DNA of 64,000 nucleotides from Candidatus Tayloriibacteriota bacterium (GCA_039934295.1 JBDTMN010000003.1:10625-74624), one strand, 5' to 3'. Numbered from the stretch's first letter, positions 3,221 through 64,000 are shown. Notes: generated by a model not told the origin, from the letters alone. Numbers and translations: made by a program.

Positions 3221-3314
3221 TTTTGTGCGATGCAAATCAACGAATACATGCGAATCTGCGAATGAGAAATTTCATTCGTATCATTCGCACAATTCGTATA
3301 TTCGCATCGTGTTG

Positions 3315-4529: not shown

Positions 4530-4838
4530 GTCGTCATTATTGCAAAAATAAGTCTGGCGGTCAAATATCGTTCGAATTTTCTTTTTAAAAGCACGTATAA
4601 AATTCTGCTGAATTTTTACTCCGCTCGGCTCGTGCCGATGGGATAGGCATCGGCACCTGTAGACGGCACCCTGCGCAAGGCTTTAAAAAAGAAAATTCTC
4701 ACTCTTACGGTTGGGTCAAACTTGCAAGAAAGGAGTGAGCGCTTGGCAGGTAACGCGTATAGTAAGAGGGAGGAATATTTTCAGACGTTACACGTTACAC
4801 GTTTTGCGTTATACTTTGACATACTTTACACTTTCCCT

Positions 4839-6996: not shown

Positions 6997-7027
6997 AAAT
7001 AGTAGCAGAAAAAAAAGCTGTTAGCTA

Positions 7028-7103
7028 TTAGCTTTTAGCTTTGCTTGAATCGGCAGGAAGCTGACACCTAACACCTAACAGCTAACAGCTTCCCCTATCC
7101 CCA
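7028..7103. repeat. Family-3 AGCT-rich hairpin repeat (units agctgttagct / agctaacagct), copy between nucleotidyltransferase and dnaB
   Basis: Other copies at 46813-46890, 47070-47149 and 48299-48390. Confidence 0.6.
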
Positions 7104-8552: not shown

Positions 8553-8688
8553 GTAAGCACGAAATTCGAATAGCGAAATTCGAAAAAATCCAAAAAATGA
8601 AAATGAAGAAATAATGAAATCCTCCTTGTTTTTTTAAATTTAGCTATTTTTCGGATTTCGGATTTCGTGCTTCGAATTTATTTAATCT

Positions 8689-27117: not shown

Positions 27118-27224
27118 GGTAAAGTAGTGTGAAAGTTTTTAAGCTACTCCCTATTTTCATATGCGCGAACTAGTGGACGAAGCGGGAACTGCTATCCAAA
27201 CCCACAATGATTATATTTATCTAC
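27118..27224 (-). promoter_or_regulatory. Conserved promoter/leader element, copy 1 (TTAGGTAGATAAATATAAT .. GATAGCAGTTCCCGCTTCGTCCACTAGTTCGCGC .. AAATAGG)
   Basis: Shares a ~60-nt core with the regions 28476-28640 and 29774-29943, all directly 5' of minus-strand genes. Confidence 0.45.
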
Positions 27225-46809: not shown

Positions 46810-46812
46810 AAT

Positions 46813-46890
46813 CAGCTGTTAGCTATTAGGTGTTAGCTTTTAGGAAAGAATCTTAAAGCTGACAGCTAATAGCTTACAGCTAATAGCTAT
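46813..46890. repeat. Family-3 AGCT-rich hairpin repeat between infC and rpmI
   Basis: cagctgttagctattaggtgttagcttttagg .. agctgacagctaatagcttacagctaatagct. Confidence 0.6.
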
Positions 46891-46892
46891 TT

Positions 46893-47078
46893 ATGAAGAC
46901 AAACAAATCCTATTCAAAGCGCCTCAAGGTAAGCAAGAACGGAAAAATCCGCGCTCGAAAGCCAGGCCAAAACCATTTTAATGCAAAGGAAAGCGGACGA
47001 AGTCAGCTTCGCAAAAGCCGCACAATACCTTTTGTAATGACCGGCAAGTCGAGATCCCGATTCATAAGTCAGCTATAA
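46893..47078 (+). CDS. rpmI: 50S ribosomal protein L35
   Basis: Basic 61-aa protein MKTNKSYSKRLKVSKNGKI.. in the canonical infC-rpmI-rplT position. Confidence 0.8.
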   Translation: MKTNKSYSKRLKVSKNGKIRARKPGQNHFNAKESGRSQLRKSRTIPFVMTGKSRSRFISQL

Positions 47079-47149
47079 GCTTTTAGCTATTAGCTTTTAG
47101 CTTTTTTAATTAAAGCTGAAAACTAATAGCTAGTAGCTAACAGCTAATC
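47070..47149. repeat. Family-3 AGCT-rich hairpin repeat between rpmI and rplT
   Basis: agctataagcttttagctattagcttttagc .. gctgaaaactaatagctagtagctaacagctaatcc. Confidence 0.6.
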
Positions 47150-48298: not shown

Positions 48299-48390
48299 AG
48301 CTGTTCGCTATTTGGTGTTGGCTGTTAGGGATTCATTTCTGAATTTTGAGTCCCGAAGCTAAAAGCTAACAACTAGCAGCTAAAAGCTAT
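48299..48390. repeat. Family-3-related hairpin repeat between the YgjP-like and MBL-fold genes
   Basis: gctgttcgctatttggtgttggctgttagg .. agctaaaagctaacaactagcagctaaaagct. Confidence 0.5.
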
Positions 48391-49775
48391 TCCAGTTCAT
48401 ACTTTATTCCTTTTTCAGGAAAGATCGCGTTGACTCCGACATAATCCCGCAGACGTTGAACGAGAAAAAGAGACGACTTCGGCTCTCCCATCACAACGAA
48501 AACCTCTTTGAGGTTGTCTCGAGTTTTCTCCACAAATTCGATGAGGTGGTCAGAATCCTTGTGCGCAGAATATCCGCTTACCCGCTCAATGGTCGCACGT
48601 ACGGGGATTCTCTCGCCTCCAATCACTATTTCTTTCGCGCCATCCTGGATTGCTCGACCCAAACTTCCCGCGACCTGATACCCGATTAAAAGAAGGGTGC
48701 TTTTTGGATCGCTCAAATAATGTCTTTCATGACTCACTACTCTCCCTCCCACTGACATCCCCGACCCGGCAATAATGATTTTTGGATTCGCGACTTTAGC
48801 AATCTCGTCATGGTCGCGGGCAGAGACGCTGAATTTCAATTTTGGAAAATTAAAAATATTGTCTCCGCCTTTTATTTCTTCCTGCACAGTTTGATTAAAA
48901 TGCTCCGTCCCCTTTCTGTAAATATCCGTGACAGCAATTGCGAGTGGCGAATCGAGAAAAACCGGCACCGAAGAAATCTTGCCTTCCTCCACCAAATTAT
49001 TGATTTCATACAGAATTACTTGGGAACGTTCCAGAGAAAAAGCAGGAATTACCAAAGTTCCCCCTCGCGCTATTGCATCGGAAATAATCTCCCTCAACCG
49101 GCTTCGCCTCTCGTCCAAGGGCTCATGATTGCGGTCGCCATAAACTGAATCCATCACCAAATAGTTTGCATCAGTCAGTTCTTCGGTATCCTTCAACAAT
49201 GGCGAGGGAGAATTGCCCAAGTCGCCGGTGAAGACAAGTTTTCTCCATTCATTGCTCTCGTTGGAAGTTTTAAACGAAAATTCAACCATGGAAGAACCCA
49301 AAACATGCCCAGCGTCTTTCAAATAAAATGAGAGACCGGGAATTATTTCCGTCTTTGTGTGATACGGAATTACATTCCAGAGGGAGAGCGCGTGGGTAAT
49401 ATCTTCTTCAGTATAAAGAACCTCTGTATTTCTTTGTTCCGCCTCTTTTTGAAGAAGGCGCAAAGCGTCGGGAAACATCACTTCGGAAAGACTCTTCGTC
49501 TCGGGAGTAGAATAAATTACACCTGTAAATCCATCACGGACGAGCTTCGGAATTTTCCCTATGTGATCCATGTGAGCATGAGTGACAAAAAGATACTGAA
49601 TGGAAGACGGGTCGTAGGGAAACGGTTTTGCGTTTTGGTCCTCGGAAAATTTATCCCCTTGAAGAAGCCCGCAATCAACGAGTATCCGCAGATTTTCAAA
49701 CTCAAACAGAAAATTCGAGCCCGTCACTGTGCCAACGCCGGAGTAAAATGTGATGGAAGGATTATTCATTTGCAT
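48387..49775 (-). CDS. Metallo-beta-lactamase-fold hydrolase, probably beta-CASP RNA-processing nuclease (RNase J/CPSF-like)
   Basis: THAHMDHIG MBL motif, about 460 aa with a beta-CASP-sized C-terminal region. Confidence 0.55.
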   Translation of the reverse strand: MQMNNPSITFYSGVGTVTGSNFLFEFENLRILVDCGLLQGDKFSEDQNAKPFPYDPSSIQYLFVTHAHMDHIGKIPKLVRDGFTGVIYSTPETKSLSEVMFPDALRLLQKEAEQRNTEVLYTEEDITHALSLWNVIPYHTKTEIIPGLSFYLKDAGHVLGSSMVEFSFKTSNESNEWRKLVFTGDLGNSPSPLLKDTEELTDANYLVMDSVYGDRNHEPLDERRSRLREIISDAIARGGTLVIPAFSLERSQVILYEINNLVEEGKISSVPVFLDSPLAIAVTDIYRKGTEHFNQTVQEEIKGGDNIFNFPKLKFSVSARDHDEIAKVANPKIIIAGSGMSVGGRVVSHERHYLSDPKSTLLLIGYQVAGSLGRAIQDGAKEIVIGGERIPVRATIERVSGYSAHKDSDHLIEFVEKTRDNLKEVFVVMGEPKSSLFLVQRLRDYVGVNAIFPEKGIKYELE

Positions 49776-49841
49776 TTAACATGTGACCGTTGACATGTGA
49801 CTTGAAAAATTGGATCCTGGTCAAATGTCACATGTTAATTG

Positions 49842-50258
49842 TCAATTGTTTTCAATTAAAATTTTCTCGTATTTCCTAAACACAAAATACAGATACCCTG
49901 AAAGTCCGCCAGCTATATCCATGAGGAGGTCAGATAGAGTATCAATTTCGTAATTTGAAACAATGAAGCTCTCCCCGAAAAGAAACTCGAAGAGTTCCCA
50001 GAGCACCCCAATTGTGAGAGCAAAAATCACAACCATGGCGAGGATTTGCGCAGACCGATTCGCCTTGAGATGAACATAGCCGGAAAAAAAGAAGAGCCAG
50101 AGAGAAGCAAGTGCTATCCAAACCCCGCCGAGATAGTGTACTACCTCATCATACCACCAAATTGACCAGTAAAGATAAAAAACTAAAGCCGAAAAATGCA
50201 ATACCACGATGCAAACAATCAGAACAAAAATCTGCTTCAATAACGTTTCTCGAATCAT
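49842..50258 (-). CDS. Small integral membrane protein
   Basis: 138 aa, four TM helices. Confidence 0.4.
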   Translation of the reverse strand: MIRETLLKQIFVLIVCIVVLHFSALVFYLYWSIWWYDEVVHYLGGVWIALASLWLFFFSGYVHLKANRSAQILAMVVIFALTIGVLWELFEFLFGESFIVSNYEIDTLSDLLMDIAGGLSGYLYFVFRKYEKILIENN

Positions 50259-50682
50259 TGATATATAGTAGCAGAAAATAGTATAGCGTGTAACCTGCCT
50301 ACCCCGTTGAGCCTCTCCACTACTGGGTAACTCGTACCATCAGAAAAGATGTATAGAAGCTAAAAAATCCTCCATGAGGATTTTTTAGTAGGGTCATTTG
50401 AAAGTATTGCCCTAGTCAAAAACTAGGTGGATGCCCTCAATTGCACTAATCAGATGGCGTTTTACGGTCTTCATCATGGCGCAACAATTTGAGCTTCCTA
50501 AATATGCTTTAATCTAGATAATACTCCAAATAACCCTGCTCTCATTATAGACTCGTAAGAATGGAATGCAAGCTAAAATAGGTGTAAGGTTTTAGGTTTA
50601 AGGTGTAAGTAAATAAAATGAAAAAAATTAAAAATCCCAAGGGTAACCCTTGGGATTTTTAACCTAAAACCTAATTAATTCA

Positions 50683-51459: not shown

Positions 51460-51550
51460 TTTTTTTATCGCTGAACTGACTCGGAACTCTAACACGGAAC
51501 TAAACTGAACTTCTGTGACTTTCCGTGTTCTTCGTCCGTGTTGTTCTGTG

Positions 51551-52631: not shown

Positions 52632-55412
52632 CTACAAACTGCTCTCCGGCGGCTTTTTCTCGTACTTTCTCATAATTTCTTCCTCTACATCTGCCCTCTC
52701 TTTGCCGAACTTCAAGTATGAGAGTTCCTTCAATTTATCGACATTTTCTTTCTTGCCCGTGTCTGGCGACACGGTTTCAATATTAAAGGGCTTCACCGGC
52801 CGACCGTTGCTCAAAAGCTTGAGATAGGCGTTTCGGTTATCTATATTCATAAGGTCCTTCATTGAAAATACCGGAGAAAACTGCTTCTCCAAATATTCCG
52901 CGTCTTCCGCGCCGACACGAAATGCGGCAATGGAGCCCACGTTTCCAAAAACGGAATCTCGAATGCTCTCCTCAAGCTGGGCGATAAACTGATGCGCGAT
53001 AATGAGCCCAAGCTTGTATTTCCTCGCCTCGGAGAGAATCGTCGAAATCGAATTTGTCGTAACATTCTGAAATTCATCAATGTAGAGATAAAAAGGAGGC
53101 AGATTTTTGTGGAACGAATCAACCCGAGAGAGCGCCGCCATCAAAATTTTGCCGACCAAAATGAGCCCCAAAAGATTGGCGTTGATTTCCCCTAAACGAC
53201 CCTTTGCAAGGTTGACCAACAGAATTTTTTTCTCGTCCATTATCTGCCTGAAGTTAAAACTGGACTTTTCTTGAGCGATAATCGGCCGCATGATGTCATT
53301 CGAGAGAAACACGTCGAATTTCGAAGTGATGTACGGCACGATATTGGCGAGCGAGGCTTCCCCACCGGCTTTCTCCGCCACCTCTCTCCAAAATTGAACG
53401 ACAATCGGATTCTTGCACCGCGAGAGCTTCAATTCCCTGAAACTTTTTTGCGCCAATACTCTCGAGACATCGAGAAGGGTGTTCCCGCTCTCCGGGTCTT
53501 CCATCGAAAGCAGAACTGCGTTTCTGAAATATTGTTCGAACATAGGACCTCCCGCCGTTTTCATATCGAAGAGCTTGTTGAAGATGGAGAGCATCTCGTT
53601 CACCACAAATGTTTTTTGCTCCGGAAATCTAATGTCGTACTCGAGCATGTTTAAAGCCATCGGGCGGGCGGTGTAGCTTGGGTCAAAATAGATGATGTCC
53701 TCGTATCTCTCTTTTGGCACCATGGCTAAGACATCCTGAATGTCGGAGCCGTGTGGGTCGATGAGGCAGACCCCCTCGCCATTCGCGATATCCTGGGCAA
53801 TCATGTTTTTCAAGAGCGTCGTTTTTCCCGTACCAGTCTGGCCGATAGTATAGAAGTGCCGGAGACGGTCATCGGGTCCAATATAAATCGGAGTTTCTGT
53901 GTTCCTGTTTTTGTTTATCCCAAGAAGAATTCCGGTAGATGCGAGACCGATTGGAGCGGGAGCGCTCGCCGCTTTCGAGATTTTCAACTGTGGAGCCGAT
54001 TTGATTTCAGTCGATGGCAAATGCATCATGGTGGTAAGCTCCTTCAGACTCAACGGAATTTTTTCATCCTCGTTATAGAGTCTGAAAGAAAAATCTTTAA
54101 GCAGTTTATTCAGTTTCCCCTTTTTGAGTTCTGTAAATGCAAGCCTGTTGCCGTGGCTGTTTTCAAACTGGTTGAACGCGGACTGCACGTCGCGCAAAAT
54201 AGACAGCGCCCTCGATTCCTCTTTTGCGGAAGCGACGATACGAATGTTCGTAGCGACGATTGGACTTGCAATCTTGAGTTTGATATCTTCCACCACTAGT
54301 TCGTCTACATTTCTGAGTTCTTTCTGCTTTTCTTTCTCCTCCTTTTCCTTCTTATTGGTGAGATCTCTCGCAACCTCCTTGCCAAATTTAAAGACGTGCC
54401 CAAAGACTGTTTCAGGAAAATCTATGGCTTCTTTCACCTTAACGCCTTTCCCGATTCGCTCAAGCGCGTACTTGTATTTGGAAGTATACTCGTCCCCGAC
54501 AGGCTTAAAGACAATCTGAATTGCCGCTCCCTCGCCGTCCCGCTCGATTTTAGAAAAGCTATTCAGAACCACGTTCAGAGGATCGTGGTCAAACTGGTCA
54601 TATGTTTTGAGAGAAAAAATAGGATTCTTCGCTGACTCGGCGGACGAGCCGAGAGAGACCCCTCGACTGTCGAAAATGTTGTAGTCATCCTTTCGCTCGG
54701 AAATCCTAGCATTATGGAAAATAGAGAGAACCTGTTTTTCAAAAAGATCGCGCTTGGAGTCCGGCACCGCCGCGAAGAAAATAAATTCGTTACTGTGGTT
54801 TTCAACCGCGAGCTCAATGGTAAAGTAGTTTGGCCCCCTGTCACTTCTGTCGGACACGGAGAGCATACCTGCGTAAAATTGCTCCATTGAGGACACGAGC
54901 TCCTTGAGCGTCTTTGGATTTTCTTCCTTTGCCTTCTCCGGCAGAGTGATTTCGTAAAGAGTCATTTCGAGAGCGCGAAACAGCGGGTCTTTTTCTTTTA
55001 TTCCTTTCACTTCAAATCCGGCCTTAATATATTGAACCAAAAAACGCTCGAAATCATCTTCAAGATGGGGACTCCCGAGCTCTTCGATGATTGAAAGAGT
55101 ATTTTTAATGCCCTTTTCCTCGAGTATTCCGAGAAATTCACTCATCTTCTGGTCGTGCTCTTCGGGCGTGAGGTCAAGTACAATTTTCCCGCGCTCCTCC
55201 TTTGACATTTCAAATTGAGGGTGGAGAACCTCGCCTCCCGGAACTTGTTTATACTTTTGGACCTCTTCAGAAATGACCTGCTCCTTTGGTTTCTCGATGC
55301 CTTTTTCTTTGAGCTCTGATTCTCTTTTCGCTACTTCCCCGCGCAAAAAAGAAAGCTCCTCCTCGGGAGTGCTGAATTTCTTCTCAACGGCAGGGAAAGT
55401 AGATTCACTCAT
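52632..55412 (-). CDS. VirB4/VirD4(TraG/TraD)-like type IV secretion / conjugative-type ATPase (AAA_10-like C-terminal domain)
   Basis: Walker A TIGQTGTGKTTLL, Walker B LYIDEFQNV; about 480-aa N-terminal domain without a TM helix. Confidence 0.55.
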   Translation of the reverse strand: MSESTFPAVEKKFSTPEEELSFLRGEVAKRESELKEKGIEKPKEQVISEEVQKYKQVPGGEVLHPQFEMSKEERGKIVLDLTPEEHDQKMSEFLGILEEKGIKNTLSIIEELGSPHLEDDFERFLVQYIKAGFEVKGIKEKDPLFRALEMTLYEITLPEKAKEENPKTLKELVSSMEQFYAGMLSVSDRSDRGPNYFTIELAVENHSNEFIFFAAVPDSKRDLFEKQVLSIFHNARISERKDDYNIFDSRGVSLGSSAESAKNPIFSLKTYDQFDHDPLNVVLNSFSKIERDGEGAAIQIVFKPVGDEYTSKYKYALERIGKGVKVKEAIDFPETVFGHVFKFGKEVARDLTNKKEKEEKEKQKELRNVDELVVEDIKLKIASPIVATNIRIVASAKEESRALSILRDVQSAFNQFENSHGNRLAFTELKKGKLNKLLKDFSFRLYNEDEKIPLSLKELTTMMHLPSTEIKSAPQLKISKAASAPAPIGLASTGILLGINKNRNTETPIYIGPDDRLRHFYTIGQTGTGKTTLLKNMIAQDIANGEGVCLIDPHGSDIQDVLAMVPKERYEDIIYFDPSYTARPMALNMLEYDIRFPEQKTFVVNEMLSIFNKLFDMKTAGGPMFEQYFRNAVLLSMEDPESGNTLLDVSRVLAQKSFRELKLSRCKNPIVVQFWREVAEKAGGEASLANIVPYITSKFDVFLSNDIMRPIIAQEKSSFNFRQIMDEKKILLVNLAKGRLGEINANLLGLILVGKILMAALSRVDSFHKNLPPFYLYIDEFQNVTTNSISTILSEARKYKLGLIIAHQFIAQLEESIRDSVFGNVGSIAAFRVGAEDAEYLEKQFSPVFSMKDLMNIDNRNAYLKLLSNGRPVKPFNIETVSPDTGKKENVDKLKELSYLKFGKERADVEEEIMRKYEKKPPESSL

Positions 55413-55548
55413 GTTGACTCCATTATATAGAGTTTAGCAAAAACCTACAATTCATCGGCAAATAAAAAGTGTAGCGTTTAACTTGTAACGTAAGAGGAGC
55501 AAATTCTTTTTTCTGACGCTACACGTTACACGTTTTACGTTACACATC

Positions 55549-55833
55549 TTAAAGCGACGTCCTCACTTCTTCGAGATTGAGTTTGTCTTTTTCCCTCTTC
55601 TCAAAAGCTGTTACTTCCTCAAGATTTTTCCTAATCTGCTTCAAGGCTTCGTTGTATCTCCCGCTAATTCCCGCCATAACTTCAAGATACAACCCCGCGT
55701 ATGCAAGGTAAAAAGAAGCTTTCTCTTTTTTTGTCATTTCTCTGCCGAAAAATTCCGCCATCAAAGAAGCTGCCTCATCGTATTTTTCCTCCTCCAAGAG
55801 AGATTCAATTTTTTTTGTATCAAGCTCGTTCAT
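55549..55833 (-). CDS. Hypothetical small protein
   Basis: 94-aa ORF between the ATPase and the giant acidic protein. Confidence 0.35.
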   Translation of the reverse strand: MNELDTKKIESLLEEEKYDEAASLMAEFFGREMTKKEKASFYLAYAGLYLEVMAGISGRYNEALKQIRKNLEEVTAFEKREKDKLNLEEVRTSL

Positions 55834-55837
55834 AGAT

Positions 55838-58800
55838 TTATTCTGGCAGGCCTTTTAATATAGTAATAATAAATCCTCTTTTTGCTTTACCTTCAAGAGT
55901 GCCGGGCAAATCTTTACCCACTTTCACGAGCAAATCCCTCACAGCTTTTCTTGCTTGGTCTCCTTTTCTTGATCCGGCCTTATTTCTTTCCAAATGACTC
56001 TTAAGAGCTTTTTGCAACTCTTCGACACTATTCGCCCCAAACGAGAAGTTTTTTAAAGCTTTGGTTATTTCGCCAGAAACTTTTCCGTCGACCGCATCGT
56101 CATTTCTCTTCTGCATCTCATCTTCATTTAATCCCTCAAGGAAATCGACACCCTCTTCGTCTTCCATTCTCTTCAACTCATCAAATTTCTCTTGAGCTTT
56201 GTCAGGGTCCATACCCGGACTCATGAGTTCCGCCAATTGGCTTTGGGCTTTCTCTATCGATATTTCCGAAATCCGCTTCCAAGAATCCAGACTCTCCAAT
56301 AACGATATCCTAATCTGTTTTGTTTGGTTTTCAAATTCTGTCCTTATCTTTGCAAAATTTTCACCTTTCGCGAGAGCCGCGAGACTCGCGGTAATGTTGT
56401 CGCTCACCGTCTTCAATTTTGCAACAGTTTCATCATGCGAGGAAACCTCGTTTTGAAATTTGCCCCCGAAGCCGGGAATCCACTCGCGAAGAAACTTTTT
56501 GAATCCGACATATTTAAATTCTCCTTTTTTCTTTGTAAGCGACTCCTTTTCTCCCTGCAATAGTCCTATTTTGGCTGCAAGGTCGTCAACACTCTTATTG
56601 CCGACAAGCTGTATTATTGCGGCCTCGTTGGCTTTAATTTCGGCTTGATTCTTCTTAATAGTGTCGAGAATATCCGCAAGTCGAATAATCTCTTCTGGAC
56701 TGTTTATGGACTTCGCATCAATTTCACCCTGAATCGCCTCGAGTTCTTCCGGAGTAAACTTACCTGAAACATTTTCAAAAAAGCCCTGAAATTCGCTCTT
56801 AAGCCCGCTTATAACTTTTTCTTTCTTGGTATACACCTCGAAAACTGACCGAATCTTGTCCGCGTCATCGTTTTCAATCCACTCCTCGCTTTCCGGATAT
56901 TGAGCGAGGAAAAGTGGAAATTTGGCGTCATAATTTTGCATCTGCCGAATGCTCATCGCCAGTATTTCCGCGTTCGTAACGCGTGATAGTGTTGCTCCCC
57001 TCATCACTGCCTCGGGCTCTCGCGTTGGTTCAGTTTTCGGCGGCTCAGCTTTAGGCACAGGTTCAGTTTTCAGTGGCTCTTCGGCTTTTGACACAACTGG
57101 TTCTACCGGCTTTTCGACAGGTTTTGGTTCTTCAGGAGGTTCGGTCATCAATAGAGCCTCTCCCGCTGATGGAATTTCCTCATCGGCAGGTTTCAAAGCT
57201 TCAGCATCATTTTTTGGCTCTCCCTTTCCTTCAAGAATTCTCCATGCCTCCTCTGGTTTGAGAGAGTCAATCTCACTTTGTGTTTTACCCATTCCTATTA
57301 GTCGTTCCTGCATATCTCGAGTAATCATAAAGGGTATACCTGCGTCCGCAGAGGATACCTCTCTCTTTGCTGTGGAATTAGAAGACTCTGACGTCAACGC
57401 TTCAGGTTGAGCGGGTAGCTTTTCTTCAGAAGGTGACGCTGGCGGCTTTGGAGCTAGGCCCAGCTCTAGAATTAATTGCTCTTCTTGAGCCAATTCTTCG
57501 GGCGACTTCTGAGGCAACTTTTCTTCAGGCGGTTTTTGTTCCGCAACACCTTCCTCGCCTGGTGGCTTTAAAATGACTGGAGGGGTCACTTCGGGGACAA
57601 CAGGAGCTGTGTCTTCAGGATTTGAAAGTGGAGCAATAGGTTCTGGTTTTTTAACACTTAGTTCGAGAGGTGTCAGATATTTGGCTTTCATGTATGCCTC
57701 TTCAAGCATGGAATATAAAGTTGGATTTTCTTCAATAATCCTTGCCGCTCTTTCCATAGTTTTATGAACATAGTCGTCAATATTTTCTTTTTTTTCTTTT
57801 GAGTCAGCTACTCCTGGTATGCTTTTTATTTCTTGAAAATTTTTATTTACTTCTGCCAAATTTCCTACCTCCTGGTCAGACTCCACAAATAACCTGCGAA
57901 GATAGCCTTTAACATTCCGATCAGAAAATAGCTTTATAAATGCGTCGAACGCGGAATATCTATACACTGGAGAAGTAGTTGATTTAACCTCTTCGAGTTT
58001 ATCTTTGATACGTTCTACCGCAACACTGCCCGCAAGCTCAACATTGTTAAAGACAATAGACGGTTCTTTCTCAAGTCGTTCGTATAAGTCCTCAAAATTT
58101 CTAACAGGTTTAGAAGATTCTGTTCGAGCGGGCTCGACATTTGCGGGTTTAGATTCAGAAGCGCCTATGGGATTTGGAGGGATTTCCTCTTTTTTTGGAG
58201 GAGGCTCAGCTTTTGCCGTTGTCTCTGGCGGTAGTCCTCCGGCTATTTTTCCTCTCTTTTTTCCTCCTTTTTTCTTTTCTCCTTCCCCTTCTTCCCCTTC
58301 TTCCCCCTTGAATCTAGTTTGATTCTTCCCTTTTCTCTCTTTTTTCTCTTTTTTCTCATCTCCAGATTCTGCATCATTTTTCAACAAAGGGGCATCGGGC
58401 TTTTTCGGCGCCCCAAAAGATTCATCGGCAAGATGAGTAACAAGAGGAGCTTCGCCTCCCTTTTTTTCTTCTGTCCCTATTTTAGGTGTTGCCTTCGATA
58501 CTTTTTCTCCCAAAAGTCTAAGCGAGTCAGATAAAGTGGTTTCTTTTTTTCCTTCGACAGGAATAGCTGAATCTTCAATCACACTCTTCTTAAATATCTC
58601 GTGCAATTCATTAGATGCCTTAATCAAACCTTCGTCCCCAGATTCAACTGCGATTTTAGCTCGCTTTTCAAAGAGGGCATCTGTATTTTCAATAACTGTT
58701 TTCCTTGGGTCTCCTACTTTTTTAGAAATTTCTGCCAACCGTTTAAGTATTTTCTCGTCCACTTTTCCAATATCTTTTTTTTGCGCTAGAGAGGCTTCCT

Positions 58801-58897
58801 TCTTTTCTTCAGGAGGTTTTTTGTCTTTGAATTTCGCCTCAAGCGCGTCTAGACCTTGAATTTTTTCAAACCCCGCATTTTCTTTGTCTTCTGCCAT
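55838..58897 (-). CDS. Giant (1019 aa) acidic, Glu/Lys/Pro-rich low-complexity coiled-coil protein
   Basis: Long EK- and P-rich tracts and a KKERKGK basic stretch; no recognisable catalytic motif. Confidence 0.5.
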   Translation of the reverse strand: MAEDKENAGFEKIQGLDALEAKFKDKKPPEEKKEASLAQKKDIGKVDEKILKRLAEISKKVGDPRKTVIENTDALFEKRAKIAVESGDEGLIKASNELHEIFKKSVIEDSAIPVEGKKETTLSDSLRLLGEKVSKATPKIGTEEKKGGEAPLVTHLADESFGAPKKPDAPLLKNDAESGDEKKEKKERKGKNQTRFKGEEGEEGEGEKKKGGKKRGKIAGGLPPETTAKAEPPPKKEEIPPNPIGASESKPANVEPARTESSKPVRNFEDLYERLEKEPSIVFNNVELAGSVAVERIKDKLEEVKSTTSPVYRYSAFDAFIKLFSDRNVKGYLRRLFVESDQEVGNLAEVNKNFQEIKSIPGVADSKEKKENIDDYVHKTMERAARIIEENPTLYSMLEEAYMKAKYLTPLELSVKKPEPIAPLSNPEDTAPVVPEVTPPVILKPPGEEGVAEQKPPEEKLPQKSPEELAQEEQLILELGLAPKPPASPSEEKLPAQPEALTSESSNSTAKREVSSADAGIPFMITRDMQERLIGMGKTQSEIDSLKPEEAWRILEGKGEPKNDAEALKPADEEIPSAGEALLMTEPPEEPKPVEKPVEPVVSKAEEPLKTEPVPKAEPPKTEPTREPEAVMRGATLSRVTNAEILAMSIRQMQNYDAKFPLFLAQYPESEEWIENDDADKIRSVFEVYTKKEKVISGLKSEFQGFFENVSGKFTPEELEAIQGEIDAKSINSPEEIIRLADILDTIKKNQAEIKANEAAIIQLVGNKSVDDLAAKIGLLQGEKESLTKKKGEFKYVGFKKFLREWIPGFGGKFQNEVSSHDETVAKLKTVSDNITASLAALAKGENFAKIRTEFENQTKQIRISLLESLDSWKRISEISIEKAQSQLAELMSPGMDPDKAQEKFDELKRMEDEEGVDFLEGLNEDEMQKRNDDAVDGKVSGEITKALKNFSFGANSVEELQKALKSHLERNKAGSRKGDQARKAVRDLLVKVGKDLPGTLEGKAKRGFIITILKGLPE

Positions 58898-59001
58898 AGT
58901 AGTATCTATTTTACCTTTATTGTAGATAGTTTGTCCACCAATCGCTTCGAGCCTGTTTATACTCTACAGGTAGATTGCAAGCAGGCTCTTAGAATTTTGC
59001 G

Positions 59002-59772
59002 TTAGGGCTTTGTCAAAATTTCCGCATCGCCTTCCGTTATCAAAACTGTGTGCTCGAAGTGCGCGCTTCGGCTCCCATCGCGAGTGCGATAGGTGAAGCC
59101 GTCGTCATCGAGCATAATTTTTTCGCTCCCCATATTCACCATGGGTTCGATAGCAATCACCATGCCGGGAACTAATTCCTCTCCCTTTCCTTTTTCTCCA
59201 AAATTCGGCACATACGGGTCTTCATGCACTTTGTGTCCAACTCCGTGGCCGGAAAGCTCACGAACAATTCCAAAACCATAGGGCAGAATCGCAGATTGCA
59301 CGGCAAAACCGATGTCGCCCACATGATTGCCCCTCTTCGCGGCTTTTATACCTGCATCGAGCGACTTTTTTGTAACAGTGAGAAGTTTTTTACTCTCCTT
59401 GCCGATTTTCCCGACGGCAATAGTTACTGCCATATCCGTAATGAGTCCATTGTGCATGAGTCCCAGGTCCAAGCTCACGATGTCACCCTCTTTTAAAATT
59501 TTAGGTTTTTCGTTTGGTATTCCGTGGACAATTTCATCATTTATTGAGACGCAGAGACTCGCGGGGTAGGGACGCTTTGCACCGTAGGGCTTAAATTGTA
59601 AAAAAGCGGGAGTATCCCCGCCTTCTGCAATCAATGTGTTTGCCAAATCATTGAGCTCGTTTGTCGCAATTCCCGAAGTAACACGGTTCGCGATTTCATT
59701 CAAAATAAGTGCGTGTCTTTTCCCGCCTTCTCGGAGTATCTCGATATCTTTTTTTGTTTTGATGGAAACCAT
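59002..59772 (-). CDS. map: Methionine aminopeptidase, type I
   Basis: Metal-ligand regions DIVSLDLG, ELSGHGVGHKVHE, GMVIAIEPMV. Confidence 0.9.
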   Translation of the reverse strand: MVSIKTKKDIEILREGGKRHALILNEIANRVTSGIATNELNDLANTLIAEGGDTPAFLQFKPYGAKRPYPASLCVSINDEIVHGIPNEKPKILKEGDIVSLDLGLMHNGLITDMAVTIAVGKIGKESKKLLTVTKKSLDAGIKAAKRGNHVGDIGFAVQSAILPYGFGIVRELSGHGVGHKVHEDPYVPNFGEKGKGEELVPGMVIAIEPMVNMGSEKIMLDDDGFTYRTRDGSRSAHFEHTVLITEGDAEILTKP

Positions 59773-59789
59773 TTTTAGAATAGATGAGG

Positions 59790-59900
59790 TATGTTAGTTA
59801 GTAAGTAAGTTAGTAAGTTAGTAAGTTAGTAAGTTAGTAAGTTAGTAAGTTAGTAAGTTAGTATACTAGCGAATCGATTTTAATTTACTAACTCACTAAT
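59790..59900. repeat. Tandem octamer repeat (gttagtaa x ~8) followed by its inverted complement (ttactaac..), forming a long intergenic hairpin
   Basis: Direct reading of the sequence between map and adk. Confidence 0.7.
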
Positions 59901-60502
59901 TTACTATTTATCTTTTGCACAACCTCCCTATGTACCTCCTCAATCGACTGCTTACCGTCAATGGAAAAGAAATTATACGCAACATTTGTCTTAAAAAAGT
60001 TCACTGACTCCATCACATTTTTATCAAACCACTGAAGTCGTGCGGTGATAGATTTTTTGTCGTCATCATTGCGTCCTCGCTCAAGAAGACGGTTTTGTGC
60101 CTCTTCATTTGGAATATCAATAAGAAATATGTAGGGCTTAGCCACTTTATAAAATTTGAGAGCAGAATCAAGCATGAAAGCTTCGTGCAACCTTCGGCAT
60201 ACTCCATCAAGAATAATATGCTCTTCCCCGGTAAAATTTTTTATCAAATAGTCACTCCACAGCCATATAGGAAAAAACTCAGGCCAAAGCCCTCCCTGCG
60301 CCATAACTTCTTTAATAATTTTACTCGTGGAAGTGGATGAAGAATCCACAAACTCACGGCCCATTCTACCCGTCTCAATATAAAGAACGTCGCGATTATC
60401 TTTTTCTTTAAAATACTTCGCGAGAAGTTGAGCTTGAGTTCCTTTTCCCGAACCTGCTCTTCCGAAAAAGAGAACTGTTTTTTGTGAAGTCATTTTATTC
60501 AC
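59888..60502 (-). CDS. adk: Adenylate kinase family protein
   Basis: P-loop FFGRAGSGKGTQA, in the secY-adk-map position. Confidence 0.75.
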   Translation of the reverse strand: MNKMTSQKTVLFFGRAGSGKGTQAQLLAKYFKEKDNRDVLYIETGRMGREFVDSSSTSTSKIIKEVMAQGGLWPEFFPIWLWSDYLIKNFTGEEHIILDGVCRRLHEAFMLDSALKFYKVAKPYIFLIDIPNEEAQNRLLERGRNDDDKKSITARLQWFDKNVMESVNFFKTNVAYNFFSIDGKQSIEEVHREVVQKINSKLVS

Positions 60503-60506
60503 GTAT

Positions 60507-60572
60507 CTTGTAACGTGTAACGTCTGAGAAAGAGATTTCTTTTTCTTACGTTACACGTTTTGCGTTACATGT
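60507..60572. repeat. Family-1 palindromic intergenic element (TGTAACGTGTAACG .. AGAAAGA|TCTTTCT .. CGTTACACGTT..CGTTACA), copy immediately 5' of adk
   Basis: Other copies at 4749-4813 (diverged), 55469-55547, 62403-62485 and 63514-63624. Confidence 0.7.
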
Positions 60573-60578
60573 CTTTAT

Positions 60579-61859
60579 CTAGTACTCGCGCATCGAGACC
60601 TGCCCTTCGATTTTCTTTACGAAATCCAAGACCACCGAAACGGCAATCAAAAGCGCGGTACCTCCGATAGCTAATGTTGGGTCTCCACTTGCGCCCTGCA
60701 TAATAAAAGGCATGACAGCGATAACTGCGAGGAAAAGAGCGCCGACCAACGTGATTCTGGTAACCACTTTTCCGATGTATTCCGATGTCGACCCTCCCGG
60801 CCTTACTCCCGGAACAAAAGCTCCGTTTTTTTGCAGGTTCGTTGAAATGGTAACTGGGTCAAAAGTGACTGCAGTGTAAAAGTAGGTAAAAATAAATACC
60901 AAAATGAAATAGATACTATTATGAAACCAAGGATTTTCCAAGAACGCTAATCCGGATTTGGCAAAAGAAATTATTTGTTCATTTTTCACACCACTCGCAA
61001 AAAAATTTAAAATCATCTGCGGGAAAAGCAAAATGGAAAGCGCGAAGATGATTGGGATCACCCCTGCCTGATTGACTCGCAAAGGCAAGTAAGTGGAAAT
61101 ACCGCCATATACTTTCATCCCTCGAACTCGTTTAGCATATGTTACAGGAATAGGACGTTCGGCTTCTGTGATAGCAACGACAGCAACAACAACTAAAATT
61201 GCAACAATTAAAAAACCGAGTAATTTAGGAATAACTGACGGATCGAGAGTAGGATAAACATACTTAAAAATCAGTTGGCTCGCAACCTGGGGCACTCGCG
61301 CAACAATTCCCGCGAAGATGATGAGCGATGTGCCGTTCCCTATGCCGTATTCCGTAATGAGCTCCCCAATCCACATCAAGAGCACCGACCCGCCGGTAAT
61401 GACGAAGATGTTGATAACGAAATCAAATGTAGCCAGAGGATCTATCACCCCTTGCTTTTGTAACAGGACGAGAAATCCGTACGCCTGAATCGCGGCTAAA
61501 ACGACGCTCATCCTTCTTGATAATTGCGCGAACTTCATCCTTCCTGCTTCCCCCTCCTCGTGGTAAAGTGCCTTCAATTTCGGTGACATCATGGTCAAAA
61601 GTTGCATGATAATCGAGGCGGTGATGTAAGGACCCACTCCGAGCATGACAATAGAGAGTGTCGCGAGACCAGAACCCGAGAAAACGTTCAAAAGGCCGAA
61701 GAATTGATTATTGGAAAAAAAACCTTCTAGTCGCAGAGGATCCACTCCGGGAATTGGTATCGCCGCGAGCAATCGGAAAATCACCAAACCAAAAAGCACG
61801 AACAGAAGTTTCTTCCGCAACATCTTGTCATGTAATAAGAGTAGGATTTTTTCTTTCAT
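60579..61859 (-). CDS. secY: Protein translocase subunit SecY
   Basis: 10-TM protein with SecY signature segments (GVDPL.., IFALSILLFPQ..). Confidence 0.9.
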   Translation of the reverse strand: MKEKILLLLHDKMLRKKLLFVLFGLVIFRLLAAIPIPGVDPLRLEGFFSNNQFFGLLNVFSGSGLATLSIVMLGVGPYITASIIMQLLTMMSPKLKALYHEEGEAGRMKFAQLSRRMSVVLAAIQAYGFLVLLQKQGVIDPLATFDFVINIFVITGGSVLLMWIGELITEYGIGNGTSLIIFAGIVARVPQVASQLIFKYVYPTLDPSVIPKLLGFLIVAILVVVAVVAITEAERPIPVTYAKRVRGMKVYGGISTYLPLRVNQAGVIPIIFALSILLFPQMILNFFASGVKNEQIISFAKSGLAFLENPWFHNSIYFILVFIFTYFYTAVTFDPVTISTNLQKNGAFVPGVRPGGSTSEYIGKVVTRITLVGALFLAVIAVMPFIMQGASGDPTLAIGGTALLIAVSVVLDFVKKIEGQVSMREY

Positions 61860-61866
61860 TTTGTTT

Positions 61867-61951
61867 CACTGAACTGACTCGGAACCTTGACACGGAACTA
61901 AACTGAACTTTCTGTGTGTTTTCCGTGTTCTTCGTCCGTGCTATTCCGTGT
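61867..61951. repeat. Family-2 intergenic element (CACTGAACTGACTCGGAAC..GACACGGAACTAAACTGAACTT..TTCCGTGTTCTTCGTCCGTG..TTCCGTGTT), copy 5' of secY
   Basis: Other copies at 51469-51552 (5' of ndk) and 63075-63159 (5' of rpsE); about 85-90% identity. Confidence 0.7.
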
Positions 61952-62391
61952 TATTTTATCGTTCCGCCGGCTTTCTCAATCTTCGCCTTCGCGCTCGCGG
62001 ACACTGCGCAACCGATTACCATAATTTTCTTTGTAAGTTCCCCATCGCCTAGAATTTTGAAAGACGAGCTCAATCCTTTTTCAGCGCTCACTATGCCCGA
62101 GGATGCAAGGCTCGCCGGAGTCACTTCGCTTCCGTCTGCAAAATACTTCTCAATCGTCTCGAGATTGACTGGGATAGATTTAGGACGGAAACTCTTGCCC
62201 CCTCCCACTCCTCGACCGCGAAGTTTGGGAAGTTTTTTAATGAGATCCCGAAGCTCTGGACGTTTTTTTCTTCCCGCCCTCGCGTTCTGACCTTTCGTCC
62301 CCCTTCCGGAAGTCTTGCCTCTCTTTCCTCCGCGTCCAACGGACATCTTTCTTTTTTGCTGGGTATTTCTTTGTAAGGTGTTTGATTGCAT
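61951..62391 (-). CDS. rplO: 50S ribosomal protein L15
   Basis: GRGTKGQNARAG..RGRGVGGGKS. Confidence 0.9.
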   Translation of the reverse strand: MQSNTLQRNTQQKRKMSVGRGGKRGKTSGRGTKGQNARAGRKKRPELRDLIKKLPKLRGRGVGGGKSFRPKSIPVNLETIEKYFADGSEVTPASLASSGIVSAEKGLSSSFKILGDGELTKKIMVIGCAVSASAKAKIEKAGGTIK

Positions 62392-62402
62392 GTTATTAAA
62401 TC

Positions 62403-62485
62403 ATGTAACGTGTAGCATGTAACGTGTAACGTAAGAAAGAAAATTCTTTTTCTTACTTTACATGTTAAACGTTTTGCGTTACACC
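62403..62485. repeat. Family-1 palindromic element, copy 5' of rplO (occupies the position where rpmD/L30 would normally lie)
   Basis: atgtaacgtgtagcatgtaacgtgtaacgtaagaaagaaaattctttttcttactttacatgttaaacgttttgcgttacacc. Confidence 0.7.
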
Positions 62486-63066
62486 TTCTTTATATTCTCT
62501 CTAAGTTTCCCGAGCGCACGTATTGCCACTTCAGCATTGTTGAGCTTGTTCTTGCTTCTCGAGAAAATCTTAGCCGTCACGTCGGTTACTCCACCAAGCT
62601 CAAGCACATTACGAACCGAGCTTCCGGCAATCAGTCCCTTTCCCGGAGCAGGTCTTATCTCAACTCTTGAACTCGTAAATTTGGCATCCACTTCATGCGC
62701 GATTGACCGAGAAGTGGTGAGGGGAATCTGTATCATATTTTTCTTTGCATTCTTCAATGCTTTGTCGATTGCAATCGAGGTGTCTCCTGCCTTGCCGGTT
62801 CCAACTCCCACTCGGCCTTTACGGTCGCCCGCAACCAAGGCCACGCTAAAGCTGAAGCGCCTTCCCCCCGAAGCCACTCTCGTGACACGGCGAATACTCA
62901 CGATTTGTTGGTCAAATTCGGGCTTAACTCTCGGAGCGCGCTCAAAACCCCTTCTCGGGTTCTTTTTTTGGTCGCGATTGCCCATCCTCGGCCGTCTCTC
63001 ATCAGTCGCATGAACTGGCACGGCTGGCGCAACAGAGTTGGTATTTTTTTGTGTAGTAGTATCCAT
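62479..63066 (-). CDS. rpsE: 30S ribosomal protein S5 (start at internal Met MDTTTQ; the ORF-track N-terminal 20 codons are translated family-2 repeat)
   Basis: dsRBD-like and S5 C-terminal motifs (VTRVASGGRRFSF, GVGTGKAGD). Confidence 0.85.
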   Translation of the reverse strand: MDTTTQKNTNSVAPAVPVHATDERRPRMGNRDQKKNPRRGFERAPRVKPEFDQQIVSIRRVTRVASGGRRFSFSVALVAGDRKGRVGVGTGKAGDTSIAIDKALKNAKKNMIQIPLTTSRSIAHEVDAKFTSSRVEIRPAPGKGLIAGSSVRNVLELGGVTDVTAKIFSRSKNKLNNAEVAIRALGKLRENIKKV

Positions 63067-63074
63067 ATTTTTAT

Positions 63075-63159
63075 CACTGAACCGATTCGGAACCTCGACA
63101 CGGAACTCCACTGAACTTCTGTGCATTTCCGTGTTCTTCGTCCGTGTGGCTTCCGTGTT
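63075..63159. repeat. Family-2 element, copy between rplR and rpsE
   Basis: cactgaaccgattcggaacctcgacacggaactccactgaacttctgtgcatttccgtgttcttcgtccgtgtggcttccgtgtt. Confidence 0.7.
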
Positions 63160-63510
63160 TTAAAATTTAAGTCCCCCTTCCCTCGCTCCTTCCGCAACCG
63201 CTTTTACTTTCCCTGTATAAATAAAACCTGCCCGATCAAACACCGCTTTTCCGATTTTCTTCTCCTTGGCCTTCTTTGCGATTGTCTTCCCTACTTCTTT
63301 TGCCTTTTCCAACGTTGTGCCCTTTCCTATTTCTCCCGAGTTCGATTGGGCTAGTGTCGCTCCTTTGTCATCATCCACAAGCTGGGCATAGATATATTTG
63401 TTGGAGCGGTACACGACAAGCCGAGGAGCTTCCCCCGTTCCTTTGACCTTTGCGCGGATTCTTCGGTGTCGTCGTATTCTTTTGTCTTGTTTGGTATTCA
63501 TATTCATCAT
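63160..63510 (-). CDS. rplR: 50S ribosomal protein L18
   Basis: KRIRRHRRIRAKVKGT..RLVVYRSNKYIYAQLVDD. Confidence 0.9.
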   Translation of the reverse strand: MMNMNTKQDKRIRRHRRIRAKVKGTGEAPRLVVYRSNKYIYAQLVDDDKGATLAQSNSGEIGKGTTLEKAKEVGKTIAKKAKEKKIGKAVFDRAGFIYTGKVKAVAEGAREGGLKF

Positions 63511-63513
63511 ATA

Positions 63514-63624
63514 ACATGTAGCCTGTAACCTGTCCTAAACCCGTCCGACGTGTCGGACTAGGGTAACGTCTGAGAAAGATCTTTCTTTTTCTTACGTTAC
63601 ACGTTACACGTTTTGCGTTACATG
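63514..63624. repeat. Family-1 palindromic element (with an internal extra hairpin insertion), copy 5' of rplR
   Basis: ..gtaacgtctgagaaagatctttctttttcttacgttacacgttacacgttttgcgttacatg. Confidence 0.7.
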
Positions 63625-63627
63625 CCC

Positions 63628-64000
63628 CTACGCCGCTTTCTTCCCCTGCTTTCTCCGAATCACTTCATCGAACCCTCGTATGCCCTTTCCCTTATAGGGC
63701 TCCGGCAATTTCTGCGCTCTGACTTTCGCAACAAACTGGCCGACCAATTCTTTATCGATACCGGAAACAGTAATTATATTCTTTTCGGCCGTAACTTTTA
63801 AGCCCTGTGGGATTTTCAATGTTACCTGATGAGAGAAACCGAGACTCATGACTAAATCGCTCCCCTTGACCTCCGATTTGAACCCGATGCCCTCCACGAT
63901 AAGTTTTTTTTGAAACTCCTTATTCACTCCCTCAATCATACTCACGATTTCGGAGGCATACGTTCCCCAAAGCTTTAATGACTCTGTATCCTGCTCTCGG
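63628..64000 (-). CDS. rplF: 50S ribosomal protein L6, C-terminal part (gene continues beyond the window end)
   Basis: GFSHQVTLKIPQGLKVT..ITVSGIDKELVGQ..AKVRA. Confidence 0.85.
   Translation of the reverse strand, partial: REQDTESLKLWGTYASEIVSMIEGVNKEFQKKLIVEGIGFKSEVKGSDLVMSLGFSHQVTLKIPQGLKVTAEKNIITVSGIDKELVGQFVAKVRAQKLPEPYKGKGIRGFDEVIRRKQGKKAA

Follow-up and report, generated by a model that had tools for sequence, protein, structure and literature searches.

What are the short palindromes that recur directly before genes in a 64,000-nt stretch of a Candidatus Tayloriibacteriota bacterium contig (GCA_039934295.1 JBDTMN010000003.1:10625-74624; hereafter the window), and how do they come to lie inside a ribosomal-protein operon? 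An initial annotation had picked out five of them, built from the heptamer TGTAACG and its complement CGTTACA, and offered three explanations: mobile palindromes akin to miniature inverted-repeat transposable elements (MITEs) or repetitive extragenic palindromic (REP) sequences, operator sites for a common regulator, or RNA hairpins that control translation initiation. Sequence comparison identifies these palindromes, herein family 1, as one family of a class of short dispersed palindromic repeats that extends across the Candidate Phyla Radiation (CPR) and whose arms are tandem arrays of 7-mers, sometimes 8-mers. Elements of the class come and go, or are exchanged for others, between one gene's stop codon and the start codon that follows, in gaps that otherwise measure 0-30 nt, and their unit number shifts in 7-nt steps. 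We favour, with a probability of about 50%, the reading that they are dispersed REP/MITE-like palindromes, co-transcribed with their neighbours, that persist because they are compatible with operons.

The five copies of family 1, 61-106 nt long and all in intergenic gaps, have arms of TGTAACG/CGTTACA units and end in terminal inverted repeats of the form TGTAACG...CGTTACA; their boundaries (Table 1) are our own delimitation, from a reading of positions 55,000-64,000 and 4,600-5,000. Counts against shuffled sequence bear out the annotation of five heptamer-armed palindromes as real copies of one short repeat. The 21-mer CGTTACACGTTTTGCGTTACA, with up to three mismatches, matches five times in the window, always on the + strand, and never in 100 shuffles; TGTAACGTGTAACG, with up to two mismatches, matches 10 times against 0.21 expected; and of 17 exact TGTAACG heptamers (4.4 expected), 16 fall within the five elements. 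The absolute orientation is the same in all five (+ strand), whereas the orientation relative to the downstream gene is common to only four. With ~87.5% of the window coding, we calculate a chance of ~0.125^5 = 3e-5 that five of five copies would be intergenic. Their placement does not contradict the enrichment at gene starts that the initial annotation expected, although for an intergenic element in so compact a genome it is trivial.

The first description of the copies nevertheless needs correcting in several respects. Related as they are, ‘near-identical’ was an overstatement: column identity averages 62%, and over 60 nt the copies agree at 67-80% of positions. The central AGAAAGA/TCTTTCT palindrome assigned to all five is present in three, and the other two carry AAGAGGAG and AAGAGGGAGG. 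The span of 55469-63624 given for the whole set omits the copy upstream of cysS at 4750-4814. Four copies were said to lie within a few nucleotides of a start codon, which holds for those before rplR (6 nt), rplO (12 nt) and adk (15 nt) but not for those before cysS (24 nt) and the ATPase gene (57 nt).

Family 1 has company. We surveyed the window for dispersed, tandem and inverted repeats and folded all its intergenic regions. The same build, namely tandem 7- or 8-mers in one arm, their complement in the other and a short centre between them, recurs in ~20 gaps, and all six junctions from rplF to map are occupied. Tandem Repeats Finder (TRF) returned 23 period-7 rows and, overall, 27 non-overlapping arrays of period 7 or 8, of which 25 fall in non-coding sequence, which makes up ~12.5% of the window. 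In the ribosomal-protein region of E. coli, of which 50 kb were taken for comparison, there are three arrays of period 8 and none of period 7. Two candidate regularities among the families were rejected: the alternation of family 1 and family 2 along the operon junctions is not significant (p ~0.17 by our own arrangement count), and an apparent core motif common to all families (AGCT, CTA, TAG) mostly reflects one common family in the clade.

The orthologous region was compared across 80 loci (L024-L103) from a SecY-based scan of metagenome contigs, all Parcubacteria with the same gene order and 61-77% SecY identity; the gap statistics pool these with the window (81 sources). Orthologous gap lengths are bimodal, being either 1-30 nt (down to 0) or mostly 60-170 nt. 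Gaps of at most 30 nt make up 36 of 62 at rplF/rplR and are found in 52 of 68 relatives at rpsE/rplO. The long gaps are heptamer- or octamer-armed hairpins of other units, such as GGTTGTA/CAACCTA, AGCTTATA/TATAAGCT, GCGTTTA/ACGCTAA and GGGTATA/AACCCTA. Family 1 itself occurs at the window's three ribosomal family-1 junctions in none of the 62-76 relatives compared, so that the copies are not the ordinary conserved leaders that the initial annotation had allowed for. The copy described as sitting where rpmD would be lies at the rpsE/rplO junction; the two genes are direct neighbours in 68 of 68 relatives in which both were found, 52 of them with the short gap, and a remnant of rpmD is not implied.

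Of the 194 co-directional gaps that measure 55-200 nt, 98 contain a tandem array; in shuffled sequence the number is 8 of 194. The best period is 7 in 49 of the 98, 14 in 13 and 8 in 11. Arrays on the stop side begin 0-8 nt past the stop codon, and those on the start side reach to within 0-12 nt of the start codon. The elements share a polarity that holds on either strand: the first arm is GT-rich and stop-rich, the second G-poor and almost start-free. A stop codon lies within 44 of 55 stop-side units, which at a period of 7 closes all three reading frames. G makes up 9% of the start-side units, and only 2 of 59 contain ATG, GTG or TTG. Across 50 distinct hairpins the medians are 24 pairs, 5 nt from stop codon to stem and 12.5 nt from stem to start codon, with 79% of the gap spanned. 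The idea that the start codon is in phase with the array, suggested by arrays that end GCT/ATG, was set aside, the match being 43% against 42% expected for the A and 43% against 25% for the T, which is not significant overall. In one relative the rplF/rplR element (L099, 352-440) pairs GGGTATAGGGG units with a start-side arm of (CCCTAAA)n, the heptamer of plant-type telomeres, presumably by coincidence.

Close relatives catch the elements in the act of change. At 89.6% secY identity and 91-97% identical flanks, L097 reads AAATAG, a 76-nt element and ATG where L101 reads AAATAA directly followed by ATG, with zero gap; L059 and L086 form a second such filled/empty pair. L030 and L035 (secY 89.7% identical) carry a different element at every junction compared. 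L033 and L041 differ at secY/adk by one 7-nt unit, and the two have differing arrays on a common CCTAAAACCTAAACA adjoining the ATG. At rplO/secY of L033 the start-side arm has been homogenised to (GCTAAAAA)6, with loss of pairing in exchange.

The same family 1 recurs far beyond these relatives. A scan of one genome per species with the 19-mer CGTTACACGTTTTRCGTTA found 23 loci, mostly in CPR metagenome-assembled genomes of several phyla; the ~20 CPR loci belong to Roizman-, Morani-, Doudna-, Taylor- and Saccharibacteria and to Parcubacteria including GW2011_GWC2_48_17. By our own estimate, chance would account for ~9 matches across all the genomes scanned and for well under 1 in those of the CPR. 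The matches in other genomes have the same architecture at unrelated junctions, with arms conserved and loops not, and the irregular unit order CGTTAYA-CGTTACA-CGTTTTG-CGTTAYA is kept exactly in all five copies of the window and, at unrelated junctions, in many CPR phyla. GW2011_GWC2_48_17 holds at least five copies of the form TATAACG-CAAAACG-TGTAACG-TATAACG / loop / (CGCTACA)4-CGCT-ATG (its locus, L023, overlaps L046 at 100% identity). In a Moraniibacteria genome family 1 adjoins three tRNA genes, lying upstream of tRNA-Ile (by 6 nt) and tRNA-Gln (by 3 nt) and downstream of tRNA-Phe (by 4 nt), and in Roizmanbacteria and some Parcubacteria the array lies directly upstream of ATG without a partner arm. 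Over the 169 kb of the 23 loci, TRF reported 145 rows of period 7 or 8, the non-CPR loci contributing only 0-3 each. Viral contigs gave no match to the 19-mer. The sole match of an exact-protein look-up, a 2.1-kb Logan contig (L104), is identical to the window, including the copy at 60509-60569; this contig, from an independent assembly of the same organism, ends inside two elements, as is expected if elements recur around the genome. Outside the CPR, Pollutibacter soli (Bacteroidota; L019, 3264-3297) carries the family-1 19-mer within a direct (ACGTTAY)n array that follows a terminator-like hairpin, recalling the Bacteroidetes heptamer repeats described by MacGregor.

These data also bear on whether dispersal need be invoked at all. 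Each element could instead be born in place, by 7-mer slippage and fold-back duplication, its likeness to the others being convergence. The 7-nt indels between relatives, the predominance of period 7 and the differing L033 and L041 arrays on their common sequence beside ATG would suit such an origin, as would the lack of a target-site duplication in the filled/empty pairs and of a transposase among the ~59 window ORFs. We consider it improbable: the exact recurrence of an irregular unit order in five copies and many CPR phyla is not predicted by slippage, the number of CPR loci far exceeds chance, and whole elements are swapped for other families between genomes at 90% secY identity. Dispersal, presence/absence between relatives and nested insertion thus make mobile palindromes the best supported of the initially offered options, even though neither a target-site duplication in the filled/empty pairs nor a transposase gene among the scanned ORFs was found.

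The second option, DNA operators for one common transcriptional regulator, together with the related idea of intrinsic terminators or attenuators, starts from the fact that the copies are palindromic and repeated upstream of several genes; one weak sigma-70-like match also overlaps the adk copy. At least 10 unrelated heptamer families, however, share the same build and positions, loops vary between genomes, and copies lie within the spc operon a few nucleotides from stop and start codons and also beside tRNA genes. Because of the many units, the variable loops and the tRNA contexts, an operator for a single regulator is unlikely. Promoter-like sites in the window are at chance level (10 against 10.0 expected), as are terminator-like sites (12 against 11.5 expected), none of the 12 being an element, and no U-tract follows the element stems, where the next start codon comes instead. 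Taken together, we regard this alternative as very improbable.

The third option concerns the RNA. Predicted sense-strand folding is significantly better than that of shuffled sequence for three copies (z = -5.0 for adk, -3.8 for rplO and -3.6 for rplR) but not for those before the ATPase gene (z = -1.5) and cysS (z = -1.4); the antisense strand folds as well (z = -5.1 at 60509, -6.9 at 62404, -4.3 at 63517 and -3.6 at 55470). The copies had been thought to cover the expected ribosome-binding site, yet there is none to cover. A Shine-Dalgarno (SD) core (GGAG, GAGG or AGGA at -20..-3) precedes 6 of 62 window genes against a 13% background, and among the ribosomal-operon junctions of the relatives it is present at 7 of 211 short and 3 of 129 long ones (10 of 340). 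This Parcubacteria-like lineage does not use SD sequences, and for that reason a structure that masks the SD is ruled out. An SD-like purine tract in the loop was likewise rejected as a ribosome-binding site: present in LCPL01 and in the cysS copy, it is on the wrong strand in the 55470 copy and absent from the three ribosomal-operon copies. No Rfam family matches the elements, at the gathering threshold on the window or at an E-value threshold on 55.3-64 kb and on the whole window; the only overlaps with elements of the class are microRNA-precursor look-alikes far below threshold, of which MIR1888 (60499-60572) is the only one on a family-1 copy. TIGR arrays, which are long tandem ~36-nt dual-spacer units next to a Nop-domain Tas gene (PMC12045711), are excluded as well, the elements being single dispersed hairpins between housekeeping genes, with no Nop-domain ORF among the ~59 scanned.

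The hairpins predicted between stop and start, for three copies in particular, may control translation initiation, but not by way of an SD. In a form adapted to this lineage, the elements would be dedicated cis-regulatory mRNA elements for SD-independent translation: the G-poor array would serve the downstream gene as its leader or enhancer, perhaps with one S1- or Csp-like protein bound per 7 nt, and the partner arm would sequester it until a ribosome terminates on the upstream ORF and opens the stem, so enforcing coupling. The position of the arrays against start codons, their low G content and near lack of NTG, the 5-nt median distance between stop codon and stem base, and the absence of SD use all fit this scheme, as do the longer start-side array (33 elements against 13), the conservation of orthologous elements at the level of coding DNA and the partner-less family-1 arrays directly before ATG. 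There is a published analogue in the TAACTGA heptamers upstream of SD-less starts, again including ribosomal-protein operons (PMC4679880). Against it, family 1 adjoins tRNA genes on both their 5' and 3' sides, and over half of the orthologous rplF/rplR and rpsE/rplO junctions work with 0-30 nt and no element. Many unrelated units leave no single binding specificity, two of the five window copies stand 24 and 57 nt from the start codon, sense-strand G:U pairs are not in excess and the two arms do not co-vary. We therefore hold a dedicated regulatory function to be a tentative and rather unlikely explanation.

A processing role would account for elements beside protein genes and tRNA genes alike. 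Here the stems would be RNase III substrates that split operon and tRNA transcripts, leaving protective stem remnants and a short unstructured leader, which is compatible with the dispersed-palindrome reading. Precedents exist in the intercistronic RNase III sites of phage T7 and in the Correia elements of Neisseria, which the enzyme cleaves when they are co-transcribed. The long, near-perfect stems (median 24 pairs) and the significant predicted folding on both strands agree with such a role. However, the window holds no rnc gene, start-side arrays are often homogenised at the expense of pairing, and a heptamer periodicity has no link to RNase III; as the primary explanation we judge it quite unlikely. 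A broader scheme, speculative and in our view unlikely, would combine these ideas into a CPR-wide operon punctuation without SD, in which the stem holds stop and start codons together until opened by a ribosome or by RNase III, and a conserved protein that reads the G-poor array, one unit per 7 nt, recruits the ribosome or hands it on to the next gene; the cross-phylum conservation of a family-1 28-mer would then reflect the specificity of this factor and not horizontal spread.

Several observations weigh against the dispersed-palindrome reading itself. In both filled/empty pairs the insert lies exactly from stop codon to ATG with no target-site duplication, and a Pfam scan of ~59 window ORFs, which left out the two largest, found no transposase, Y1_Tnp, RAYT or IS200/IS605 domain. 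The window copies are only 62-80% alike, unlike the near-identity of a recently active MITE. The arrays are polarised relative to transcription, start-side copies exceeding stop-side copies in 33 elements and the reverse holding in 13 (p = 0.005); insertion blind to orientation would not predict this. Co-variation of the arms is not strict, start-side arrays being homogenised while stop-side units drift, and a wobble test lent no support to sense-strand selection (130 sense G:U against 179 A:C), although it is confounded by that homogenisation. Some elements are moreover well conserved: the secY/adk element is identical at 97 of 97 positions between L033 and L049, whose flanks are ~90% identical, and across L026, L046 and L050 the orthologous element has an identity of 78-90%, compared with 70-82% in the coding DNA around it. 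Conservation equal to or above that of flanking coding DNA suggests purifying selection or concerted evolution more than junk, and given this some orthologous elements may have a cis role. Finally, the transcription, folding, coupling and processing of the elements are all inferred from sequence. A separate observation concerns mosaic identity among related groundwater populations, in which the adk segment of L041 and L049 is 100% identical and secY 87%; this points to recent recombination, which could also move or homogenise elements.

If the elements are nonetheless dispersed palindromes, their persistence within operons could be explained as follows. Each would be transcribed with its operon and fold into a hairpin of 20-30 bp that loops the insert out, so that the upstream stop codon and the downstream start codon stay adjacent. 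Being palindromic, the element would present the same arm polarity in either insertion orientation, and insertion should therefore be harmless both ways. Such an insert would be nearly without cost in a lineage that initiates without SD and probably relies on termination-reinitiation in operons: a terminating ribosome, whose footprint covers more than the 5-nt spacer, would open the foot of the stem and leave the next gene's leader accessible. Side effects on mRNA stability, on coupling or on RNase III processing would be probable. The elements may be spread by a transposase as yet unseen, or by recombination or template switching within the arrays.

Among the nearest known systems are the REP/BIME and REPIN elements of gamma-proteobacteria, which RAYT tyrosine transposases mobilise. 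Like the elements described herein, these are short (~35-100 nt), imperfect, extragenic, multi-copy palindromes, often between co-transcribed genes and forming mRNA hairpins (as we infer here), without target-site duplication and with several families per genome. Family 1 has five palindromic, extragenic copies in the 64 kb of the window. A REP sequence near a stop codon affects translation of the upstream gene. The differences are that the arms here are tandem 7-mers that change in 7-nt steps, that the elements fill stop-start gaps in ribosomal-protein operons, that one arm motif is common to whole phyla, that no RAYT gene was found among the ~59 scanned window ORFs, and that the conserved GTAG head of REP sequences is seen only in some variant units (TGTAGC at 55470, 62411 and 63517, and a TGTAGCG form in LCPL01).

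The Correia elements (CREE) of Neisseria and MITEs such as RUP, ERIC and RPE are similarly dispersed palindromes of 60-150 nt, with terminal inverted repeats and presence/absence between relatives, and they are co-transcribed with their neighbours and form RNA hairpins, as may hold for the elements here. MITEs have target-site duplications (TA for Correia elements) and a parent insertion sequence, neither of which was seen in the filled/empty pairs or the window scan, and their arms are not tandem heptamers. In unit structure there is a likeness with the TAACTGA heptamer direct repeats of Beggiatoaceae, cyanobacteria and Bacteroidetes, which lie upstream of SD-less starts, including those of ribosomal-protein operons (MacGregor 2015, PMC4679880). 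These, and the cyanobacterial short tandemly repeated repetitive (STRR) heptamers, are tandem 7-mers right before SD-less starts; TAACTGA-type arrays also have stops in all three frames in forward orientation, 7-nt indels between relatives and a patchy distribution across phyla. They are direct repeats of one unit, whereas the class here is mostly of inverted hairpin pairs with many units per genome. Hairpin-bridged initiation at phage T4 genes 38 and 25, and shunting after a short ORF in the cauliflower mosaic virus 35S leader, also loop out RNA in a stem so that what lies on either side behaves as though adjacent, but are analogues of working principle only: those are single evolved sites, while here there are dispersed families, no SD and a looping that is putative. 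No description of heptamer-armed palindromes in the CPR was found in the searchable literature.

The individual elements are collected in Table 1. Pfam assigns the neighbouring genes to L6, L18, S5, L15, SecY, ADK, MAP, CysS and a TraG/VirD4-like ATPase; the ribosomal genes of the window are on the - strand.

Table 1 Family-1 copies and other elements of the same build in the window.
Element	Position	Strand	Location and features
Family 1	4750-4814	+	Divergent gap upstream of cysS (ATG at 4839, 24 nt off); left arm degenerate, GTAACGCGTATAG; centre AAGAGGGAGG; right arm CGTTACA CGTTACA CGTTTTG CGTTATA; irregular arm on the side toward the gene start
Family 1	55470-55544	+	Between a 94-aa ORF (stop codon 55549-55551, at 4 nt) and the VirD4/TraG-like ATPase gene (start codon 55410-55412, at 57 nt); centre AAGAGGAGCAAATTC
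Family 1	60509-60569	+	Fills secY/adk gap; secY stop codon at 9 nt; adk ATG at 60493-60491 (- strand), at 15 nt
Family 1	62404-62483	+	Fills rpsE/rplO gap; 40-nt arms, 75% complementary; rplO ATG 12 nt from one end; rpsE stop codon TAA (62479-62481) within the terminal TGTAACG heptamer (62477-62483)
Family 1	63517-63622	+	Fills rplF/rplR gap; rplF stop at 5 nt, first rplR ATG at 6 nt; extra 31 nt (~63530-63561) relative to the other copies, with GC-rich palindrome GTCCGACGTGTCGGAC, unique in the window
Family 2, arms CACGGAAC/TTCCGTG with CTGAAC units	61860-61950	+	Fills rplO/secY gap
Family 2	63068-63147		rplR/rpsE
Family 2	51462-51541		Upstream of ndk
(GTAAGTTA)x9.4 8-mer array with inverted partner arm (59881-59906)	59789-59910	+	Fills adk/map gap; partner arm codes the last adk codons (…SKLVS) and the adk stop codon
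AGCTNTT/AANAGCT family	46811-46889	+	infC/rpmI gap
AGCTNTT/AANAGCT family	47071-47148		rpmI/rplT
AGCTNTT/AANAGCT family	7015-7091		Divergent gap beside dnaB
AGCTNTT/AANAGCT family	~48300-48389		
CGAAATT/TTTCGGA arms	8555-8679	+	dnaB/recR gap
GCGAAT/ATTCG units	3240-3305		
TGACATG units	49768-49850		
AGGTTTA units	50574-50680		

Other features of the window were recorded in passing. Two matches resembling group I introns, at 30821-31051 (-) and 32811-33089 (+), score 43 and 48.3 bits against an Rfam gathering threshold of 50, and flank a tRNA gene (31907-31981) and a third tRNA-like 3' end (31761-31785). A LAGLIDADG homing-endonuclease ORF (919-1617, -) overlaps the tRNA gene at 882-965. An intergenic block of 90-160 nt, not of the heptamer-palindrome type, is present in three copies that are 67-88% alike (27154-27232, 28473-28632 and 29798-29957) and adjoins DUF347, histidine-phosphatase and NUDIX genes. 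Positions 33937-34055 and 34489-34607 hold the two copies, 96% identical, of a 119-nt repeat; both include a small hairpin and a (TTCTTGA)4 array, and both precede a small ORF. There are two giant ORFs, 13303-20817 (2504 aa) and 35436-43880 (2814 aa, with internal repeats of 120-290 nt), and a 1019-aa low-complexity ORF (55838-58897), without Pfam match, lies between map and the family-1 copy at 55470.

The genomes of CPR bacteria, or Patescibacteria, are among the smallest and most compact of any bacteria and apparently do without SD sequences, yet about half of their longer gaps hold 7-mer hairpins, and nearly every junction of the spc ribosomal-protein operon in the window carries one. In practical terms, the elements break short-read assemblies and can supply stop codons and C-terminal residues to neighbouring genes. 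If the elements are selfish, their neutrality to translation, whichever way they are inserted, would show how dispersed repeats can colonise essential operons of streamlined genomes. Should they be functional, they would point to an undescribed form of SD-free coupling or processing of cistrons, and may offer a handle on the heptamer repeats of Beggiatoa, cyanobacteria and Bacteroidetes.

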